A DNA stretch of 64,000 nucleotides, from the NCBI RefSeq assembly GCF_003790525.1, contig NZ_CP033635.1. One strand, given 5' to 3'. Shown here piece after piece: positions 15,988-47,618 of this stretch. This DNA comes from Escherichia coli (GTDB taxonomy: Bacteria; Pseudomonadota; Gammaproteobacteria; Enterobacterales; Enterobacteriaceae). A program made the position numbers and the translations under genes. Below the pieces are notes generated by a model. That model was not told the origin of the DNA. It made no database searches and saw nothing but the letters and a program-made list of their open reading frames with translations. Position 1 is the stretch's first letter. Each line of letters begins with the position of its first letter.

Positions 15988-17205
15988 CTACACGTCCAGC
16001 AGCAGACGCGTCGGATCTTCCAGCAACTCTTTGATCGTTACCAGGAAGCCCACGGATTCGCGACCATCGATCAGACGGTGATCGTAGGACAGCGCCAGGT
16101 ACATCATCGGCAGGATCTCAACCTGACCATTCACCGCCATCGGACGATCTTTGATAGCGTGCATACCCAGAATTGCGCTCTGCGGCGGGTTGATGATCGG
16201 CGTAGACATCAGGGAACCGAACACACCACCGTTGGTGATGGTGAAGTTACCACCGGTCAGATCTTCAACCGTCAGCTTGCCGTCACGGCCTTTAACTGCC
16301 AGCTCTTTAATTTTCTTCTCAATGTCTGCCATACCGAGGGTATCGACATCACGCAGTACCGGCGTCACCAGGCCGCGCGGCGTAGAAACCGCCATGCTGA
16401 CGTCGAAATAGTTGTGGTAAACCACGTCATCGCCGTCGATAGAAGCATTCACTTCCGGGTAACGTTTCAGGGCTTCAACCACCGCTTTCACGTAGAAGGA
16501 CATAAAGCCCAGACGGATGCCGTGGCGTTTTTCAAACGCTTCACCGTACTGCTTACGCAGATCCATAATCGGCTTCATGTTGACTTCGTTGAACGTGGTC
16601 AGCATGGCGGTGGAGTTTTTCGCTTCCAGCAGACGCTCTGCCACACGCTTACGCAGGCGAGTCATCGGCACACGTTTTTCGCTACGTGCAGCCAGGGCCG
16701 GTTGCGCCGCCGGAGCAGCCGCTGCCGGAGCAGACTCTTTCGCCGGGGCTTTCGCCAGATGTTTTTCCACATCTTCACGGGTCAGACGACCACCTACACC
16801 GGTGCCTTTAATGGCGCTGGCATCAAGATTGTGTTCAGCCAGCAGGCGACGGATCGCCGGGCTTAACGCATCGTTGTTTTGCTCTTCCAGAGACGCCTGC
16901 TGGCGTTGCGCCGGAGTGGACGCTTTCTCTTCAGATTTGGCGCTGGTTTCTTTACCGGCGCTGTTGCCTTCACGCAGGCGACCAAGGATCTGACGAGACG
17001 TTACCGTTGTACCTTCATCTTCCAGAACCGCATCCAGAATGCCGTCTGCTGATGCCGGTACTTCCAGTACCACTTTGTCAGTTTCGATTTCTACCAGCAC
17101 TTCATCACGTACGACTGCGTCGCCGGGTTTTTTATGCCAGGTTGCGACGGTGGCATCGGCTACGGATTCAGGCAGGTCAGGGACCAGAATATCTACGCTA
17201 CTCAT
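15988..17205 (-). CDS. sucB: dihydrolipoyllysine-residue succinyltransferase (2-oxoglutarate dehydrogenase E2)
   Basis: 405-aa translation recognised as SucB, with lipoyl domain and Ala/Pro-rich linker. Confidence 0.97.
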
Positions 17206-17219
17206 TGTGTATCCTTTAT

Positions 17220-20021
17220 TTATTCGACGTTCAGCGCGTCATTAACCAGATCTTGTTGCTGTTTCTGGTGAACGGACATATACCCTACCGCCGGAGAGGC
17301 GGAGGCCGGGCGGCCTGCATAACGCAGAGAAGCCCCAAACGGAATCACTTCACGGAAATGATGCTGGCTGCAGTACCATGCGCCCTGATTGAGCGGCTCT
17401 TCCTGGCACCAGACAAAATCCTTGACGTGAGCAAACTGCTGCAACACTTCCTGCATCGCTTTATGCGGGAACGGGTAGAGTTGCTCGATACGCACAATGG
17501 CGACATCGTGTTGATTGTTCTTACGACGCTGTTCCAGCAGGTCGTAATAAACCTTACCAGAACACATCACTACGCGCTTCACGCCCTTCGGATCAAGCTC
17601 GTCGATTTCACCGATGGCTGGCAGGAAGGTGCCGTTCGCCAGTTCTTCGAGGCTGGAAACCGCCAGCGGATGACGCAGCAGGGATTTCGGCGACATCACG
17701 ACCAGCGGACGACGCATCCCGCGCAGCGCCTGACGACGCAGCATGTGGTAAACCTGTGCCGGGGTAGACGGTACGCACACCTGCATGTTTTGCTCAGCGC
17801 AAAGTTGCAGATAACGTTCCAGACGCGCGGAGGAGTGCTCCGGCCCCTGCCCTTCGTAACCGTGCGGCAGCAACATCACCAGACCACACATCCGGCCCCA
17901 TTTCTGCTCGCCAGAGGAGATGAACTGGTCGATAACCACCTGAGCACCGTTGGCGAAGTCACCGAATTGCGCTTCCCAGATAGTCAGAGTGCGTGGTTCT
18001 GCGGTGGCATAACCGTATTCAAACGCCAGTACGGCTTCTTCAGACAGTACGGAGTCCCAGACACGGAACGCGCCCTGGCCGTTATGGATGTGTTGCAGCG
18101 GCGTGTAAGTGGAACCGTTAGACTGGTTGTGGATCACCGCGTGGCGGTGGAAGAAGGTACCGCGACCGGAGTCTTCACCCGACAGGCGAACCGGAATGCC
18201 TTCGTCAACCAGCGTGGCGTAAGCGAGGTTTTCCGCGCCGCCCCAGTCGAACAGTTTCTCACCAGCAGCCATCGCCTGGCGATCGCCATAAATCTTGGCA
18301 ACGCGAGACTGCATTTCAACTGCTTCCGGCACCGTGCTGATGCGTTTAGCCAGTTCCTGCAGGCGCTTCATCTCAACTTTGTTCGGGTACTCTTCGTCCC
18401 ATTCGTGGTTGAGGTACGGCGACCAGGTGAAAGAGTGCATGTTCATCGGACGCCACTCTGCTACAACGCAATCGCCAGCATCCAGCGCATCGCGGTACAG
18501 GTTAACCATCTCGGTGGCATCTTCCAGCGTCGCGACTTTTTCCTGCTCCAGCTTGTCAGCATAGATTTTGCGCGGCGTCGGATGTTTTTTGATTTTCTGA
18601 TACATCAGCGGCTGGGTTGCGCTCGGCTCGTCGGCTTCGTTGTGGCCGTGACGGCGGTAGCACACCAGGTCGATGAAGACATCACGTTTAAAGGTGTTAC
18701 GGAAATCGAGCGCCAGACGGGTCACAAAAGCAACGGCTTCCGGATCATCCGCGTTTACGTGGAAAATCGGTGCCTGAACCATCTTACCGATATCAGTACA
18801 GTACGGTGTAGAACGAGCATCCAGCGGATTAGAGGTGGTGAAGCCAACCTGGTTGTTGATAACGATACGTACCGTACCGCCAACTTCATAACCACGCGCT
18901 TTCGACATGTTCAGGGTTTCCTGAACCACGCCCTGCCCGGTCACTGCGGCGTCACCGTGGATGGTGATTGGCAGCACTTTGTTGCTGCTCGGCTCATCGA
19001 GTCTGTCCAGACGGGCACGAACAGAACCGATAACTACCGGGCTGACAATCTCAAGGTGAGACGGGTTAAACGCCAGCGCCAGGTGCACCAGGCCGCCATC
19101 GGTCTGGAAGTCAGACGAGAAGCCCATGTGGTATTTCACGTCGCCCGTGCCGAGGTGTTCTTTATGTTTACCGGCAAACTCGTCGAACAAGTCTTGCGGT
19201 TTTTTACCCAGCACGTTCACCAGCACGTTCAGACGACCACGGTGCGCCATCCCGAGAACCACTTCGCGGGTGCCGCTGTTGCCAGCGTGGCGGATCATCT
19301 CTTTAAGCATCGGGATTAACGCGTCACCGCCTTCCAGCGAGAAGCGTTTTGCGCCAGGGAATTTTGCGCCGAGGTAACGTTCAAGGCCTTCAGCGGCGGT
19401 CAGTTCGCTTAAGAAGCGTTTTTTCTCTTCGCTATTGAAAGTCGCGCGACCAGACTCGATACGCTGTTGGATCCAGCGTTTTTCTTCGGTGCTGGTGATG
19501 TGCATATACTCGGCACCAATCGGGCCGCAGTAGGTTTGCTTGAGGGCTTCCAGCAGCTCGCCGAGTTTCATGGTTTCTTTGCCGCTGGCAAATGAACCGA
19601 CGTTGAAGGTCTCCTGGAAGTCTGCTTCGGTCAGATCGTGGAAAGACGGATCCAGATCGGCCACTTTATCTTGCTGCCACAGTCCCAGCGGATCGAGATT
19701 CGCATGCTGGTGACCACGGAAGCGGTATGCGTTAATGAGCTGCAGGACTTTAACCTGCTTCACATTGGTGTCAGGGTCGGAGATCGTTGAAGAGTAACGT
19801 GAAGCGTCTTTCGCCAGGCGGCGGAAATATTCACGCGTTTGAGAGTGGAATTGATCCGGTTTGACTCCCGTACCAGGTAACTGCTGGAACGTCGAACGCC
19901 AGTTAGCGTCAACCGAGTCAGGATCGGTTAAGAAGTCTTCATAGAGCTGTTCTATCCAGCTCTGGTTTGCGCCAGAGAGGTAAGAAGAGTCCAACCAGGC
20001 TTTCAAAGCGCTGTTCTGCAT
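17220..20021 (-). CDS. sucA: 2-oxoglutarate dehydrogenase E1 component
   Basis: 933-aa translation recognised as SucA. Confidence 0.97.
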
Positions 20022-39809: not shown

Positions 39810-42486
39810 CGAACCCTTACGTCCCGACCCCGATCGTCTGCTGGAACAAACTGCCGCGCCGCATCGGGGGAAGCTGAAAGTTTTCTTCGGTGCCTGCGCA
39901 GGCGTCGGGAAGACCTGGGCGATGCTGGCAGAAGCCCAGCGACTGCGGGCGCAAGGGCTGGATATTGTGGTTGGCGTGGTAGAAACCCACGGGCGGAAAG
40001 ATACCGCCGCAATGCTGGAAGGGCTGGCTGTTCTGCCGTTAAAACGCCAGGCGTACCGTGGGCGGCACATCAGCGAGTTTGATCTCGATGCCGCCCTCGC
40101 CCGCCGTCCGGCACTGATCTTAATGGACGAACTGGCGCACAGTAATGCGCCAGGTTCTCGTCATCCCAAACGCTGGCAGGATATTGAAGAACTGCTGGAA
40201 GCTGGCATTGATGTTTTCACTACCGTCAACGTTCAGCATCTGGAAAGTCTGAATGATGTGGTCAGCGGCGTCACCGGAATTCAGGTACGGGAAACCGTGC
40301 CCGATCCTTTTTTTGATGCCGCCGACGACGTAGTACTGGTGGACTTGCCCCCGGACGATCTGCGCCAGCGACTGAAAGAAGGCAAAGTCTATATTGCCGG
40401 GCAGGCGGAGCGCGCCATTGAACATTTTTTTCGTAAAGGTAATCTGATCGCCCTGCGCGAACTGGCACTGCGCCGTACTGCCGATCGCGTTGATGAGCAA
40501 ATGCGCGCCTGGCGGGGGCATCCTGGCGAAGAGAAAGTCTGGCACACGCGCGACGCGATCCTTTTATGCATCGGGCATAACACCGGCAGCGAAAAACTGG
40601 TCCGCGCGGCGGCGCGGCTGGCGTCACGGCTGGGAAGCGTCTGGCACGCGGTGTATGTTGAAACCCCTGCCCTGCACCGCTTACCGGAGAAAAAACGTCG
40701 GGCAATTCTCAGCGCCTTACGTCTGGCGCAGGAGCTGGGCGCAGAGACGGCAACACTTTCTGATCCAGCGGAAGAGAAAGCGGTAGTGCGTTATGCCCGT
40801 GAACATAATCTCGGCAAGATTATTCTCGGTCGCCCAGCCTCGCGCCGCTGGTGGCGTCGGGAAACGTTTGCTGACCGACTGGCGCGAATCGCCCCCGATC
40901 TCGATCAGGTGCTGGTCGCGCTTGATGAACCACCCGCCCGCACGATAAACAACGCGCTGGATAGCCGCTCTTTTAAAGACAAGTGGCGGGTACAGATTCA
41001 GGGATGCGTGGTTGCCGCCGCGTTATGCGCCGTTATCACCTTAATTGCCATGCAGTGGCTGATGGCGTTTGATGCCGCCAACCTGGTGATGCTGTATCTG
41101 CTTGGCGTGGTGATGGTGGCGCTATTTTATGGACGCTGGCCTTCAGTGGTTGCCACCGTCATTAATGTGGTGAGTTTCGATCTCTTTTTTATCGCCCCAC
41201 GCGGCACGCTCGCCGTCTCTGATGTGCAATATCTACTGACCTTCGCGGTGATGTTAACCGTCGGGCTGGTGATCGGGAACCTTACTGCGGGCGTGCGTTA
41301 TCAGGCGCGGGTAGCCCGTTACCGCGAGCAACGCACACGGCACTTATATGAAATGTCGAAAGCTCTGGCTGTGGGCCGCAGTCCGCAGGACATCGCCGCC
41401 ACCAGCGAACAATTTATTGCCTCCACGTTTCATGCCCGCAGTCAGGTGCTGTTACCCGATGACAACGGTAAATTGCAGCCGTTAACACATCCGCAAGGAA
41501 TGACGCCGTGGGACGATGCCATCGCGCAGTGGAGTTTTGATAAAGGCCTGCCTGCGGGCGCGGGCACCGACACGTTACCCGGTGTACCGTACCAGATTTT
41601 GCCGCTAAAAAGCGGCGAGAAAACCTACGGACTGGTGGTGGTGGAACCGGGGAATCTGCGTCAATTGATGATCCCGGAACAGCAGCGCCTGCTGGAGACG
41701 TTTACGCTGTTAGTCGCCAATGCCCTTGAGCGGCTGACGCTGACCGCCAGCGAAGAACAGGCGCGGATGGCAAGCGAACGAGAACAGATCCGCAACGCCC
41801 TGCTGGCGGCACTTTCGCATGATTTACGCACGCCGCTTACGGTGCTGTTCGGTCAGGCAGAAATCTTAACGCTCGATCTGGCAAGCGAAGGATCGCCCCA
41901 CGCCCGCCAGGCCAGCGAGATTCGCCAGCATGTGCTGAACACGACCCGACTGGTGAATAATCTACTGGATATGGCGCGAATTCAGTCCGGCGGCTTTAAT
42001 TTGAAGAAAGAGTGGTTAACGCTGGAAGAAGTGGTCGGCAGCGCGCTGCAAATGCTGGAACCGGGTTTATCGTCGCCCATCAATCTTTCTCTGCCAGAAC
42101 CGCTGACCTTAATCCACGTTGACGGGCCACTGTTTGAACGGGTGCTGATTAATCTGCTGGAGAACGCGGTGAAATACGCGGGTGCGCAGGCCGAAATTGG
42201 TATCGATGCCCACGTTGAGGGCGAAAATCTACAACTGGATGTCTGGGATAATGGCCCCGGTCTTCCACCAGGCCAGGAGCAGACGATTTTCGATAAGTTT
42301 GCTCGTGGAAATAAAGAGTCGGCGGTGCCGGGGGTAGGGCTTGGGCTGGCAATTTGTCGGGCGATTGTGGATGTACACGGCGGCACCATTACCGCGTTCA
42401 ACCGACCGGAAGGTGGTGCCTGTTTTCGTGTTACACTTCCCCAGCAAACTGCCCCTGAACTTGAAGAATTTCATGAGGATATGTGA
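39802..42486 (+). CDS. kdpD: sensor histidine kinase KdpD
   Basis: Start set at [14 protein letters not shown], giving 894 aa; overlaps the kdpC end. Confidence 0.95.
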
Positions 42487-43160
42487 CAAACGTTCTGATT
42501 GTTGAAGATGAACAGGCTATTCGTCGCTTTCTGCGCACGGCGCTGGAGGGCGACGGGATGCGCGTCTTTGAGGCCGAAACGCTGCAACGCGGCTTGCTGG
42601 AAGCGGCAACCCGTAAGCCAGATTTGATTATTCTCGATCTCGGCCTGCCCGATGGTGATGGGATTGAGTTTATCCGCGACCTGCGCCAGTGGAGCGCGGT
42701 GCCGGTGATTGTGCTTTCCGCACGCAGCGAAGAGAGCGACAAAATCGCCGCACTGGATGCCGGAGCGGATGATTACCTGAGTAAGCCGTTTGGCATTGGC
42801 GAATTGCAGGCCCGTCTGCGCGTCGCTTTACGCCGCCACTCCGCCACCACCGCGCCCGATCCGCTGGTGAAATTTTCCGATGTGACCGTCGATTTAGCCG
42901 CCCGCGTGATTCACCGGGGTGAGGAAGAGGTGCATCTCACGCCGATTGAATTCCGCCTGCTGGCCGTGCTGCTCAACAACGCCGGAAAAGTGCTCACCCA
43001 GCGCCAGTTACTCAATCAGGTGTGGGGACCAAACGCGGTCGAACACAGTCATTATTTGCGTATTTATATGGGGCATCTGCGACAAAAACTGGAGCAAGAT
43101 CCCGCCCGCCCCCGCCATTTCATTACTGAAACCGGTATTGGGTATCGGTTTATGCTTTGA
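42483..43160 (+). CDS. kdpE: response regulator KdpE (OmpR family)
   Basis: 225-aa translation; GTG start overlapping the kdpD stop. Confidence 0.93.
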   Translation: MTNVLIVEDEQAIRRFLRTALEGDGMRVFEAETLQRGLLEAATRKPDLIILDLGLPDGDGIEFIRDLRQWSAVPVIVLSARSEESDKIAALDAGADDYLSKPFGIGELQARLRVALRRHSATTAPDPLVKFSDVTVDLAARVIHRGEEEVHLTPIEFRLLAVLLNNAGKVLTQRQLLNQVWGPNAVEHSHYLRIYMGHLRQKLEQDPARPRHFITETGIGYRFML

Positions 43161-43197
43161 ATATTAATTTTAATACATCCTGCCTTTTATTAATTAA

Positions 43198-43226
43198 AGC
43201 CGTAATAATAAATACGGCTTTTTATC
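43198..43226 (+). terminator. intrinsic terminator downstream of kdpE
   Basis: Hairpin AGCCGTA-ATAATAAA-TACGGCT followed by TTTTTAT. Confidence 0.6.
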
Positions 43227-43393
43227 TTAAACAACACACAAAAATAACAATTCAATATTTTATATTACTGAGTAAAAAGTTCATCATTAAATAAATTAAG
43301 ATTGATCATTTTTTATTGATCACCTTCACAGTTCAACAGTATTTCCTGGATAGAATACCTTCACCTTCATTCACATCAGGAAAGGTAAATTAA

Positions 43394-43498
43394 ATGGAAA
43401 ATAACAGCCGCACTATGCCCCATATAAGGCGGACAACTCATATTATGAAGTTTGCTCATCGCAATAGCTTCGACTTTCACTTCTTCAATGCCCGTTAG
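43394..43498 (+). CDS. speFL: speF leader peptide (ornithine-sensing arrest peptide)
   Basis: 34-codon ORF MENNSRTMPHIRRTTHIMKFAHRNSFDFHFFNAR about 260 bp upstream of speF. Confidence 0.8.
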   Translation: MENNSRTMPHIRRTTHIMKFAHRNSFDFHFFNAR

Positions 43499-43755
43499 TC
43501 TACCGACTAAGGGCACTTCAGCGTACAGGTCTTCCTGACTCTCTGTATTACAGGCATATGCCTGTATTCCGCAGTGCTCATTCTCTGTTAACCCTTGTAT
43601 TATCAGCCACCGGACTGATAAGGGTTTCTGCATTCTGAAAAAAGCAAACTTCTGATTAATTTATCAGCGGGGTAACTTTGCTTTTTTTCCGGCACGATCG
43701 ATTTCTCATTCGAGAAATTGAGGACCTGCTATTACCAAAAATAAAGAGTTGGAAA

Positions 43756-45954
43756 ATGTCAAAATTAAAAATTGCGGTTAGTGATTCTTGCCCGGACTGT
43801 TTTACCACGCAGCGAGAATGTATCTATATTAATGAAAACAGTAATATCGATGTGGCGGCAATAGTTTTATCGCTCAACGATGTTACACGCGGAAAACTCG
43901 ATGAAATCGATGCCACGGGTTATGGCATCCCGGTATTTATTGCTACTGAAAATCAAGAACGTGTACCCGCAGAGTATTTGCCCCGTATTTCGGGTGTCTT
44001 TGAGAATTGCGAATCGCGACGAGAATTTTATGGTCGTCAGTTAGAAACCGCAGCCAGCCATTATGAAACTCAACTGCGCCCGCCCTTCTTCCGCGCACTG
44101 GTCGATTATGTCAATCAGGGTAACAGCGCGTTTAATTGCCCCGGTCATCAGGGCGGCGAATTTTTCCGTCGCCATCCGGCGGGGAATCAGTTTGTGGAAT
44201 ACTTTGGTGAGGCGCTGTTCCGTGCTGACTTGTGCAACGCGGATGTGGCAATGGGCGATCTGCTGATTCACGAAGGCGCGCCATGCATTGCACAGCAACA
44301 TGCGGCAAAAGTGTTTAATGCCGATAAAACATACTTCGTTCTAAATGGCACTTCATCTTCTAACAAAGTGGTTTTAAACGCCCTGTTAACACCGGGGGAT
44401 CTGGTGCTGTTTGACCGTAATAACCATAAATCTAATCACCACGGAGCGTTGCTACAGGCTGGCGCAACACCAGTTTATCTGGAAACCGCACGCAACCCGT
44501 ATGGCTTTATCGGTGGTATTGATGCCCACTGCTTCGAAGAAAATTACCTGCGCGAACTGATTACAGAAGTCGCACCGCAGCGGGCAAAAGAGGCGCGTCC
44601 TTTCCGCCTCGCCGTTATTCAGCTAGGCACTTACGACGGTACGATTTATAACGCCCGTCAGGTGGTGGATAAAATTGGTCATCTGTGTGACTACATCCTC
44701 TTTGACTCCGCATGGGTCGGCTATGAGCAGTTTATCCCGATGATGGCGGACTGTTCACCACTGTTGCTGGATCTTAATGAGAACGATCCGGGTATTCTGG
44801 TTACGCAATCTGTGCATAAACAGCAGGCTGGTTTTTCCCAGACTTCACAAATCCATAAAAAAGACAGCCATATCAAAGGGCAACAGCGTTATGTACCGCA
44901 CAAACGCATGAACAACGCCTTTATGATGCATGCCTCCACCAGCCCGTTCTATCCGCTGTTTGCCGCACTGGATATCAACGCCAAAATGCATGAAGGCGTC
45001 AGCGGTCGTAATATGTGGATGGATTGTGTGGTAAATGGCATTAATGCCCGCAAACTGATCCTCGATAACTGTCAGCATATTCGTCCATTCGTACCTGAAC
45101 TGGTGGATGGTAAACCCTGGCAGTCGTATGAAACAGCGCAAATTGCGGTTGATCTGCGCTTCTTCCAGTTTGTACCAGGTGAGCACTGGCATTCTTTTGA
45201 AGGCTATGCAGAGAATCAATACTTTGTCGATCCGTGCAAACTGTTGCTGACAACCCCAGGTATTGATGCACGTAACGGCGAATATGAAGCGTTCGGTGTA
45301 CCCGCGACGATTCTTGCTAACTTCCTGCGCGAAAATGGCGTAGTGCCGGAAAAATGCGATCTTAACTCCATCCTCTTTCTGCTGACTCCGGCAGAAGATA
45401 TGGCCAAACTTCAGCAACTTGCTGCTCTGCTGGTACGCTTCGAAAAACTGCTTGAGTCCGACGCGCCATTATCAGAAGTACTGCCTTCCATCTACAAACA
45501 GCATGAAGAGCGCTACACCGGTTATACCCTGCGTCAGTTGTGTCAGGAAATGCATGATTTGTATGCCCGTCACAACGTGAAACAACTGCAAAAAGAGATG
45601 TTTCGTAAGGAACACTTCCCACGTGTCAGCATGAATCCACAAGAAGCCAACTACGCCTATTTACGCGGTGAAGTGGAGCTGGTTCGTCTGCCGGATGCAG
45701 AAGGCCGTATCGCTGCAGAAGGTGCGCTTCCTTATCCTCCGGGAGTGCTGTGTGTTGTTCCGGGTGAAATCTGGGGTGGTGCTGTTCTGCGTTACTTCAG
45801 CGCTCTGGAAGAAGGGATCAACCTGCTGCCAGGTTTTGCACCGGAGCTTCAGGGTGTCTATATCGAAGAACATGATGGTCGTAAGCAAGTTTGGTGCTAT
45901 GTCATCAAGCCTCGTGGTGCGCAAAGCACCCTGCTGAAAGGGGAAAAATTATGA
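43756..45954 (+). CDS. speF: inducible ornithine decarboxylase
   Basis: Start set at MSKLKIAVSDSCPD, giving 732 aa. Confidence 0.96.
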   Translation: MSKLKIAVSDSCPDCFTTQRECIYINENSNIDVAAIVLSLNDVTRGKLDEIDATGYGIPVFIATENQERVPAEYLPRISGVFENCESRREFYGRQLETAASHYETQLRPPFFRALVDYVNQGNSAFNCPGHQGGEFFRRHPAGNQFVEYFGEALFRADLCNADVAMGDLLIHEGAPCIAQQHAAKVFNADKTYFVLNGTSSSNKVVLNALLTPGDLVLFDRNNHKSNHHGALLQAGATPVYLETARNPYGFIGGIDAHCFEENYLRELITEVAPQRAKEARPFRLAVIQLGTYDGTIYNARQVVDKIGHLCDYILFDSAWVGYEQFIPMMADCSPLLLDLNENDPGILVTQSVHKQQAGFSQTSQIHKKDSHIKGQQRYVPHKRMNNAFMMHASTSPFYPLFAALDINAKMHEGVSGRNMWMDCVVNGINARKLILDNCQHIRPFVPELVDGKPWQSYETAQIAVDLRFFQFVPGEHWHSFEGYAENQYFVDPCKLLLTTPGIDARNGEYEAFGVPATILANFLRENGVVPEKCDLNSILFLLTPAEDMAKLQQLAALLVRFEKLLESDAPLSEVLPSIYKQHEERYTGYTLRQLCQEMHDLYARHNVKQLQKEMFRKEHFPRVSMNPQEANYAYLRGEVELVRLPDAEGRIAAEGALPYPPGVLCVVPGEIWGGAVLRYFSALEEGINLLPGFAPELQGVYIEEHDGRKQVWCYVIKPRGAQSTLLKGEKL

Positions 45955-47270
45955 GTCAGGCTAAATCGAACAAGATGGGCGTCGTTCAGTTAACCATACT
46001 GACGATGGTCAACATGATGGGCTCCGGTATCATCATGCTGCCGACAAAGCTTGCCGAAGTTGGGACAATCTCAATTATCTCCTGGCTGGTGACAGCCGTA
46101 GGCTCAATGGCACTGGCGTGGGCATTCGCAAAATGCGGTATGTTCAGCCGTAAGGCAGGTGGTATGGGCGGTTATGCGGAGTATGCTTTCGGTAAATCCG
46201 GTAACTTTATGGCGAACTACACCTACGGTGTCTCGCTGCTGATTGCTAACGTCGCGATTGCTATTTCGGCGGTTGGTTACGGCACCGAACTGCTCGGCGC
46301 GAGTTTGTCGCCAGTGCAGATTGGTCTTGCGACCATCGGGGTGCTGTGGATTTGTACCGTGGCTAACTTCGGTGGTGCGCGCATTACCGGGCAAATCAGT
46401 AGCATTACTGTGTGGGGGGTAATCATTCCGGTCGTCGGTCTGTGCATTATCGGCTGGTTCTGGTTTAGCCCGACGCTGTACGCTAACTCATGGAACCCTC
46501 ATCATGTACCGTTCTTTAGCGCTGTAGGTTCCTCCATCGCCATGACGTTGTGGGCTTTCCTCGGTCTGGAGTCTGCCTGTGCCAACGCCGAAGTAGTGGA
46601 AAACCCGGAACGTAACGTGCCAATAGCAGTCCTTGGCGGTACGTTAGGTGCGGCAGTGATTTATATCGTCTCCACCAACGTGATTGCCGGGATTGTGCCC
46701 AATATGGAGCTGGCAAATTCAACGGCACCATTTGGCCTGGCCTTCGCACAGATGTTCACACCAGAAGTGGGTAAAGTCATTATGGCGCTGATGGTGATGT
46801 CCTGCTGCGGTTCACTGCTTGGCTGGCAGTTCACCATTGCCCAGGTGTTTAAATCTTCATCTGATGAAGGCTACTTCCCTAAAATTTTCTCCCGTGTAAC
46901 CAAAGTGGATGCACCGGTTCAGGGAATGTTGATCATTGTGATTATTCAGAGTGGATTGGCACTGATGACCATTAGCCCGTCACTGAACAGCCAGTTCAAC
47001 GTGCTGGTTAACCTGGCCGTGGTGACCAATATCATCCCGTATATTCTGTCGATGGCAGCATTAGTTATTATTCAGCAGGTCGCCAATGTGCCACCGTCAA
47101 AAGCGAAAGTAGCAAACTTTGTTGCCTTTGTTGGTGCGATGTACAGTTTCTATGCGCTGTACTCATCCGGGGAAGAAGCCATGCTGTACGGTTCCATCGT
47201 GACCTTCCTTGGTTGGACACTGTATGGTCTGGTATCTCCACGCTTTGAACTGAAAAATAAACACGGTTAA
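45951..47270 (+). CDS. potE: putrescine:ornithine antiporter
   Basis: Start set at MSQAKSNKMGVVQL, giving 439 aa; ATGA overlap with the speF stop. Confidence 0.96.
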   Translation: MSQAKSNKMGVVQLTILTMVNMMGSGIIMLPTKLAEVGTISIISWLVTAVGSMALAWAFAKCGMFSRKAGGMGGYAEYAFGKSGNFMANYTYGVSLLIANVAIAISAVGYGTELLGASLSPVQIGLATIGVLWICTVANFGGARITGQISSITVWGVIIPVVGLCIIGWFWFSPTLYANSWNPHHVPFFSAVGSSIAMTLWAFLGLESACANAEVVENPERNVPIAVLGGTLGAAVIYIVSTNVIAGIVPNMELANSTAPFGLAFAQMFTPEVGKVIMALMVMSCCGSLLGWQFTIAQVFKSSSDEGYFPKIFSRVTKVDAPVQGMLIIVIIQSGLALMTISPSLNSQFNVLVNLAVVTNIIPYILSMAALVIIQQVANVPPSKAKVANFVAFVGAMYSFYALYSSGEEAMLYGSIVTFLGWTLYGLVSPRFELKNKHG

Positions 47271-47320: not shown

Positions 47321-47353
47321 GACAAAGAGTTCGTTATTTATGCCGCATCCGGC

Positions 47354-47495
47354 AGGTGTAGGGTCCAAACGCGGTCGAACACAGCAACTATTTGCGTAAT
47401 TATATGAGGCATTTGCGACAAAAACTGGAACAGGATCTCGTCCGCCCCGCCATTTCATTACTGAAACCGGTATTGGGTATCGGTTTATGCTTTGA
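47354..47495 (+). repeat. degenerate direct repeat of the kdpE 3' end (about 142 bp), non-coding fragment
   Basis: Aligns base-for-base with kdpE 43014-43160 at roughly 90% identity with one 3-bp gap; the last ~50 nt, including the TGA, are identical. Confidence 0.85.
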
Positions 47496-47618
47496 AAAAA
47501 GTGGCAATGTATGGATAAAGTCATTTTTTATTCAAATATAAGGAACTTAATATTTAAAAAATGTCCCATACAATGCCTCATCATAAATGACACCGTAGCA
47601 CACAAGGAGCAAGTAGCG

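Follow-up and report, generated by a model that had tools for sequence, protein, structure and literature searches.

A 34-codon leader ORF upstream of speF in Escherichia coli is identical to the ornithine-sensing arrest peptide SpeFL

In the stretch of Escherichia coli DNA analyzed here (64,000 nucleotides, referred to as the window), the genes kdpD-kdpE-(leader)-speF-potE follow one another on the plus strand, and the locus raises the question of what occupies the long interval between kdpE and speF and how that interval might control the inducible ornithine decarboxylase encoded beyond it. The interval, estimated at about 600 bp in a preliminary reading of the DNA letters without database searches (the sequence-only reading), measures 595 bp (43161..43755) between the last nucleotide of kdpE at 43160 and the speF ATG at 43756. 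It matches the corresponding region of SMS-3-5 and of further E. coli chromosomes at 100% identity, and the layout kdpE-speFL-speF-potE is the same in K-12 MG1655. Coordinates of the genes, ORFs, and RNA elements discussed below, together with the basis of each assignment, are collected in Table 1.

Table 1. Positions and basis of assignment of features in the kdpE-speF-potE region of the window.
Feature	Position	Strand	Basis
kdpE, response regulator	42483..43160	+	NCBIfam NF007820, 487.6 bits (cut-off 325); RefSeq annotation in a 100%-identical genome
kdpE intrinsic terminator (predicted)	43196..43228	+	Terminator scan; stem-loop 43196..43221, then T-rich tail
TGATCA-N8-TGATCA block, possible regulator site	43304..43321		GATC cores invariant or nearly so (15 leaders, ~10 genera); present in Salmonella, E. 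albertii, and the majority E. coli allele
Putative -10 TAGAAT (43351..43356) and putative transcription start (~43363)	43351..43363	+	Inference
85-aa antisense ORF, a chance ORF and not a gene	43376..43633	-	Stops, length range, no synonymous bias, no family match
Shine-Dalgarno region of speFL, AGGAAAGG	43378..43385	+	Read from the sequence; AAAGG conserved in alignment
speFL, 34-codon leader ORF, TAG stop	43394..43498	+	Identical to K-12 b4803 and PDB 6TBV/6TC3; coding-type conservation in 46 loci
Sensor motif HIRRXXH (HIRRTTH), codons 10-16	43421..43441	+	Sequence; motif and mutational data in 10.1101/604074
Rare Arg codons AGG-CGG, codons 12-13	43427..43432	+	Sequence
CU-rich tract UUUCACUUCUUC, codons 28-31, proposed Rho entry/anti-SD	43475..43486	+	By homology; position equivalent to Salmonella nt 112-124 (PMC6386406)
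Hairpin over the speFL stop codon, the RNA polymerase pause hairpin of the published work	43489..43515	+	Single-sequence fold; conservation; 10.1101/604074
Hairpin P2 (CAGG-UCUU-CCUG), within the region equivalent to the Salmonella DS hairpin	43526..43537	+	Consensus fold; 88% paired, no compensatory change
Hairpin P3 (ACAGGC-loop-GCCUGU)	43550..43565	+	Consensus fold; 98.9% paired, variable loop
Nested hairpin P4/P4b	43593..43624	+	Compensatory changes in 8/10 pairs
P5, A-tract/U-tract stem around inner hairpin CUGAU..AUCAG, then U7-CC	43639..43690	+	Scan, consensus fold, pairing counts
Hairpin P6 (AUCGAUUUCUC-loop-GAGAAAUUGA)	43698..43721	+	98.7% paired; 3 compensatory pairs (one with UA replaced by CG in 4 sequences)
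speF, inducible ornithine decarboxylase, the regulated gene	43756..45954	+	TIGR04301 ODC_inducible, 1429 bits (cut-off 1310); RefSeq
potE, putrescine-ornithine antiporter, co-transcribed with speF	45951..47270	+	RefSeq annotation transferred from 100%-identical locus L001; ORF end

The sequence-only reading placed an intrinsic terminator ahead of the short ORF in the interval, and a hairpin with a T-rich tail is indeed found there, 36 nt past the kdpE stop codon. The hairpin (AAAGCCGTA-loop-TACGGCTTT) has nine pairs, four of them G-C, and a loop of eight nucleotides, and is followed by TTATCTT; the scan that detected it returned four terminator-like sites in all, compared with 0.6 expected from shuffled sequences. 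With a G+C-containing stem, a U-tract, and a location downstream of a stop codon, the element has the attributes by which an intrinsic terminator is defined, and it is assigned as a predicted terminator of kdpE.

Beyond the terminator, the same reading noticed a 34-codon ORF ending in a Phe/His-rich tail and took it for the ornithine-sensing ribosome-arrest leader that controls speF. The ORF lies on the plus strand, beginning 233 nt after kdpE and ending 257 nt (43499..43755) before speF, and its translation is MENNSRTMPHIRRTTHIMKFAHRNSFDFHFFNAR, with the C-terminal end RNSFDFHFFNAR corresponding to the tail in question. All 34 residues are identical to K-12 MG1655 b4803, and all 34 are likewise identical to the SpeFL chain resolved in the stalled-ribosome cryo-EM structures 6TBV and 6TC3. 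The UniProt entry for the peptide is SPEFL_ECOLI, and RefSeq places the label 'leader peptide SpeFL' on exactly the same ORF in SMS-3-5. Relative to K-12, the window differs at 14 of the 595 intergenic positions, none of them within speFL or the 113 nt that follow it, and these differences are neutral polymorphism only.

The residues with known functions are also in place. P9-H10-I11-R12-R13-T14-T15-H16 is present in the window peptide, as are all of the C-terminal effector residues F20, F26, F28, F30, F31, and N32 (KF20AHRNSF26DF28HF30F31N32AR), and the published description of the leader (10.1101/604074), which includes a speFL-speF spacer of 257 nt, agrees with the window in the spacer length, the UAG stop, the HIRRXXH motif, the AGG-CGG codon pair, and the Phe core. 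In every feature tested the window matches the SpeFL/orf34 leader known from K-12 (b4803) and Salmonella (orf34), although the Salmonella leader is about 120 nt longer, with a spacer of 378 nt (locus L009). The ORF is assigned, with a probability of roughly 0.96, as the known E. coli SpeFL ornithine-sensing arrest leader of speF, with stalling and Rho dependence taken over from the identical and homologous sequences in which they have been described. None of the results contradicts the assignment, and among its defining features only the Pfam score is marginal. The identification proposed from the letters is thus borne out by the matches to b4803, to 6TBV and 6TC3, and to the RefSeq, UniProt, and published records (10.1101/604074); the peptide itself is already known, and nothing new about it emerges here. 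What the comparison does illustrate is that an arrest-peptide leader can be recognized from raw sequence by a first-stage reader.

Pfam PF10940 'Leader peptide SpeFL' (formerly DUF2618) is the sole Pfam match to the peptide, which is short, at E = 4e-5 and 23.8 bits against a gathering cut-off of 25 bits, and in the NCBIfam search no model matches the 34-aa peptide. Since the E. coli sequence scores below the Pfam cut-off and NCBIfam offers no matching HMM, annotation based on HMMs would miss the founding member of the family.

The conservation of the ORF was examined in other genomes. Upstream regions of 80 speF loci, fetched from contigs representing one genome per species, were searched for the pattern MENN...HIRR..H..., and a SpeFL-type ORF was found in 48 of them, distributed over Escherichia, Citrobacter, Salmonella, Raoultella, Kluyvera, Enterobacter, Kosakonia, Hafnia, Edwardsiella, Proteus, Morganella, Serratia, Yersinia, and other genera. 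With the window included, 49 leaders are recognized, of which 46 have exactly 34 codons and were used for codon statistics; not one of the 46 contains an internal stop. HIRR occurs in 49 of 49 MENN-type leaders, a count that is not independent evidence because the search pattern required HIRR. Variation at codon positions 1, 2, and 3 across the 46 ORFs is 4.3, 2.9, and 11.0, respectively, and is thus highest at the third position. The speFL frame is the only one with a synonymous excess (11058 synonymous vs 7573 non-synonymous differences); in four of the five other frames, synonymous differences number 1056-1602 vs approximately 17000-18000 non-synonymous, and the remaining frame, antisense frame rev 1, has 8428 synonymous vs 10683 non-synonymous differences and contains stops in 45 of 46 sequences. 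The check proposed with the sequence-only reading, conservation of the 34-codon ORF at the amino-acid level across genomes carrying speF, therefore has a positive outcome in 46 loci, and the ORF is preserved as coding sequence across Enterobacterales.

These statistics bear on the possibility that speFL is simply a chance ORF in an AT-rich spacer and that speF is controlled by a promoter and RNA structure only. Counting both strands together, the 595-bp AT-rich interval is overlapped by about ten ORFs 20 aa or longer, so that by existence alone the speFL ORF is no more than chance would give; moreover, the spacer RNA is itself conserved and structured. It is conservation that sets speFL apart: a length of 34 codons in 46 of 49 leaders, variation concentrated at third positions, and no stops are not expected of a chance ORF, and relatives of the peptide precede speF even where the spacer is not conserved, in Hafnia, Serratia, Yersinia, Proteus, and Shewanella. 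In Salmonella, start-codon and stop-codon mutants abolish speF expression (PMC6386406). A chance origin for the ORF is accordingly considered to have a negligible likelihood.

Outside the set defined by the search pattern, SpeFL-like leaders having an (I/V/T)RRxxH core and a Phe/Cys-rich tail are observed before speF in Shewanella, Plesiomonas, and gut MAGs of Sutterella/Burkholderiaceae, the last being beta-proteobacteria (loci L052-L055, L058-L060, L063, L065-L068; for example, MHVN..VQN.VIRRIRHIMCF.CRSCFS..RF). The SpeFL family has been described in gamma-proteobacteria (10.1101/604074). No SpeFL-like leader was found in the Pseudomonas loci or in several loci resembling second speF copies (L071, L072, L079, L081, L028).

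The longest ORF in the interval is not speFL but an 85-aa ORF on the opposite strand, and it could be argued that this is the real gene and that the 34-codon ORF is incidental, particularly as some pipelines deposit it in E. coli and Shigella. The public records name it only 'hypothetical protein', however, and it is unannotated in both RefSeq records inspected that carry the K-12/window allele (MG1655 and SMS-3-5). In its frame (reverse frame 0) a stop lies opposite speFL in 17 of 49 loci, among them the majority E. coli allele, the length of its counterparts ranges from 20 to 127 aa, and synonymous and non-synonymous differences number 1514 and 17117, respectively, indicating no synonymous bias. 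No Pfam or NCBIfam family matches it. The 85-aa ORF is ruled out as a gene by the stops in relatives, the lack of amino-acid conservation, and the lack of a family, in agreement with the doubt that the sequence-only reading had cast on it, and the probability left for the argument that it is the gene of the interval is minute. The present check thus removes a spurious ORF that some pipelines still deposit.

The action of SpeFL has been described for the same peptide sequence by Herrero del Valle et al. (10.1101/604074). Toeprints that depend on ornithine and resist puromycin place codon 33 or 34 in the P site; stalling is lost on a frameshifted speFL template and is abolished or impaired by point mutants of His10, Ile11, Arg12, Arg13, His16, Phe26, Phe28, Phe30, and Phe31. 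In the 2.7 Å structure a single L-ornithine is bound between 23S rRNA and Pro9, Arg12, and Arg13 of the HIRRXXH loop, the core formed by Phe20/26/28/30/31 compacts, Asn32 displaces U2585, and RF1 is blocked at the UAG stop (10.1101/604074). Bicyclomycin renders expression constitutive, showing that speF control is Rho-dependent (10.1101/604074). In Salmonella, mutants in the orf34 start codon or with premature stops undergo Rho-dependent termination about 157 nt into the transcript (Ben-Zvi et al., PMC6386406), and a CU-rich tract just ahead of the stop, in the nt 112-124 domain, is the proposed Rho entry site (PMC6386406). Relief of the premature termination by stalling or by bicyclomycin has been published for E. 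coli and Salmonella. [quoted passage not shown]

Applied to the window, these results suggest the following course of events. At low ornithine the ribosome would complete speFL and depart, while slow decoding at rare Arg codons 12-13 would hold back the ribosomes that follow, exposing a C-rich Rho entry site that overlaps the 3' end of speFL; Rho would then end transcription just past the stop-codon hairpin, where RNA polymerase would pause. At high ornithine one L-ornithine would be trapped by 23S rRNA and the three HIRRXXH-loop residues Pro9, Arg12, and Arg13, compaction of the C-terminal Phe-rich domain would move U2585 to a position that blocks RF1, and the ribosome would stall, Arg34 occupying the P site and UAG the A site, as more ribosomes queue behind it. 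The stalled and queued ribosomes would cover the Rho entry site and allow transcription to continue into speF-potE. [quoted passage not shown]

A known parallel is TnaC, the leader peptide of tnaCAB. Like SpeFL, TnaC acts with a free amino acid to block a release factor at the stop codon, and the stalled ribosome masks a Rho site, which lets transcription proceed (10.1101/604074). The two peptides have no sequence similarity, however, and they differ in ligand (Trp for TnaC, ornithine for SpeFL), in the binding pocket within the tunnel, and in the genes regulated.

The two rare Arg codons invite a different interpretation, in which the leader is an attenuator responding to codon supply: the speed of the ribosome over these codons would report arginine or its tRNA and set the RNA fold and Rho access, the peptide being irrelevant. 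Both codons are conserved, codon 12 being AGG in 34 of 46 loci and codon 13 CGG in 24 of 46, and in Salmonella the effect of arginine has been reported to be exerted via the two Arg codons and via alternative RNA folds, which change the sensitivity to RNase G (PMC6386406). An irrelevant peptide is nevertheless difficult to reconcile with amino-acid conservation over its whole length, including a C-terminal Phe core far from the Arg codons, or with the published loss of stalling on frameshift, the impaired point mutants, and the ornithine seen in the tunnel by cryo-EM (10.1101/604074). As an explanation on its own, codon supply is very improbable; codon supply and ligand sensing are more aptly regarded as two levels of a single system than as competing mechanisms.

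Further sequence properties of the leader were compared with this scheme of ornithine-dependent arrest and Rho-dependent termination. Over 43430..43534 there are 7-9 more C than G per 60 nt, and a modest excess continues to about 43610. The supplementary 3'-end tables of PMC7815308 for E. coli assign no 3' end to speFL and list one antisense to speF only. In Salmonella a long-range helix hides the speF ribosome-binding site (PMC6386406). The energy of the best duplex that the speFL region forms with the speF translation-initiation region in the window is -13.4 kcal/mol vs a shuffle mean of -13.2 kcal/mol, and 228 of 500 shuffles are as good; because the duplex is no better than shuffled sequences, a sequestering helix of the Salmonella type is unsupported and is not claimed for the window allele.

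Transcription of the leader probably starts a short distance upstream of the ORF. The block GGATA(A/G)AATA is conserved in the leader alignment at the putative -10, and the start is placed near 43363 because this block aligns with Salmonella, where transcription has been mapped to begin 31 nt upstream of the orf34 ATG (Ben-Zvi et al., PMC6386406). The Shine-Dalgarno sequence of the Salmonella ORF is given as AGGA (PMC6386406). A scan for consensus sigma-70 promoters upstream of speFL returned no site, and a clear -35 is missing. The TGATCA-N8-TGATCA block is kept in genera ranging from Escherichia to Salmonella, Citrobacter, Kosakonia, and Enterobacter and may be a binding site for a regulator of the acid-inducible promoter. 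Two GATC (Dam) sites lie within the block, which precedes the -10-like TAGAAT by about 30 nt.

The 257 nt that separate speFL from speF form a conserved, structured RNA in their own right. The Rfam speF leader element of alpha-proteobacteria, RF00518, is a conserved structured RNA upstream of an ornithine decarboxylase gene. It is ruled out here, as a search of 43000..43900 against Rfam at E <= 1 did not match any family; the enterobacterial leader differs from it in using a translated peptide and Rho. The stop-codon hairpin of speFL has 90% of its cells paired in 25 Enterobacteriaceae sequences vs 20-39% in slid controls; at its outermost pair, in which the wobble base of codon 32 is joined to a nucleotide past the end of the ORF, UA/CG covariation is seen in 6 sequences. 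For the remaining spacer, 15 whole leaders from about ten genera were aligned, and in the five consensus hairpins 95% of cells are paired vs 37-47% in slid controls, with 15 compensatory pairs vs 3-7, the structure having been derived from the same alignment as that used for the pairing counts. P2 falls where the 'downstream-of-stop' (DS) hairpin was described in the Salmonella leader (PMC6386406). The consensus fold also contains a long-range GGAA/UUCC pairing between 43396..43399 and 43687..43690, for which covariation is uninformative since the sequences are invariant.

P5 and P6 are distinguished by their position. In Enterobacteriaceae P5 lies at a fixed 78 and 104 nt from the speF ATG, loci with long spacers included, and the distance of both P5 and P6 from the ATG remains constant even when the spacer is 50-120 nt longer. 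In Hafnia, Serratia, Yersinia, and Proteus neither P5 nor P6 is recognizable at the sequence level, and only the peptide is kept. Within P5 the terminator scan located a second terminator-like hairpin followed by seven U (43666..43688) inside the leader; in the Salmonella leader an intrinsic terminator was reported not to be found (PMC6386406). Five of the differences between the window and K-12 fall in P5 (70-115 nt upstream of the speF ATG), and its outer stem is kept across genera.

The leader also exists in two forms within E. coli. A leader of the K-12/window type (at least 95% identity) is present in 1,706 of 5,426 complete E. coli genomes, and approximately 3,300 carry a divergent version, so that the lower count reflects neither a search artefact nor loss of the locus but an alternative allele, divergent in the leader and in the 5' portion of speF. 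The SpeFL encoded by the divergent allele, MENNNRAMPHIRRTTHIMKFSHRNSFDFHFFNAR (N5, A7, S21), is the same peptide as in E. albertii; the allele has a spacer of 304-309 nt, and the 5' part of its speF is 83-87% identical to that of the window. Divergence is confined to approximately 42.8-44.7 kb of the window (loci L083, L004, and L003), where identity falls to 53-89% over the 3' end of kdpE, the leader, and roughly the first kb of speF, compared with 95-99% in both flanks. This distribution of identity looks like a local recombination patch centered on the regulatory region.

In addition to the scheme above, the 257-nt spacer, with its conserved and covarying hairpins P3-P6, might be more than a passive runway for Rho, with P5 as a second, independent checkpoint (e.g., an intrinsic attenuator or a pH/polyamine switch) that is undescribed for E. 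coli in the two published studies, in which case the sharply divergent patch that covers the leader in two thirds of E. coli genomes would reflect selection on that regulation. This is regarded as rather unlikely, and the uncatalogued structured spacer and the two-allele patch are put forward as modest leads.

Two E. coli genomes carry natural loss-of-function variants of the locus. In MB10 (L084) an IS1 follows speFL codon 25 and speF-potE is deleted, and in ECONIH6 (L085) a frameshifted speF pseudogene lies behind an intact speFL.

The speFL-speF-potE cassette is bracketed by two direct-repeat copies of the 3' end of kdpE (145 bp, about 90% identical) at 43017..43161 and 47353..47496; the second copy comes shortly after potE, where K-12 has the ybfI pseudogene. 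The arrangement of the repeats suggests that the cassette was inserted at the end of kdpE. Finally, an unrelated AT-rich ORF of 45 aa is present in the window at 43157..43294 (+), where the majority allele has a 44-aa ORF (L083 2121..2255, +) that is annotated in RefSeq as the 'hypothetical protein' WP_001295874.1 and overlaps the start of speFL on the same strand; both of these ORFs are probably spurious.
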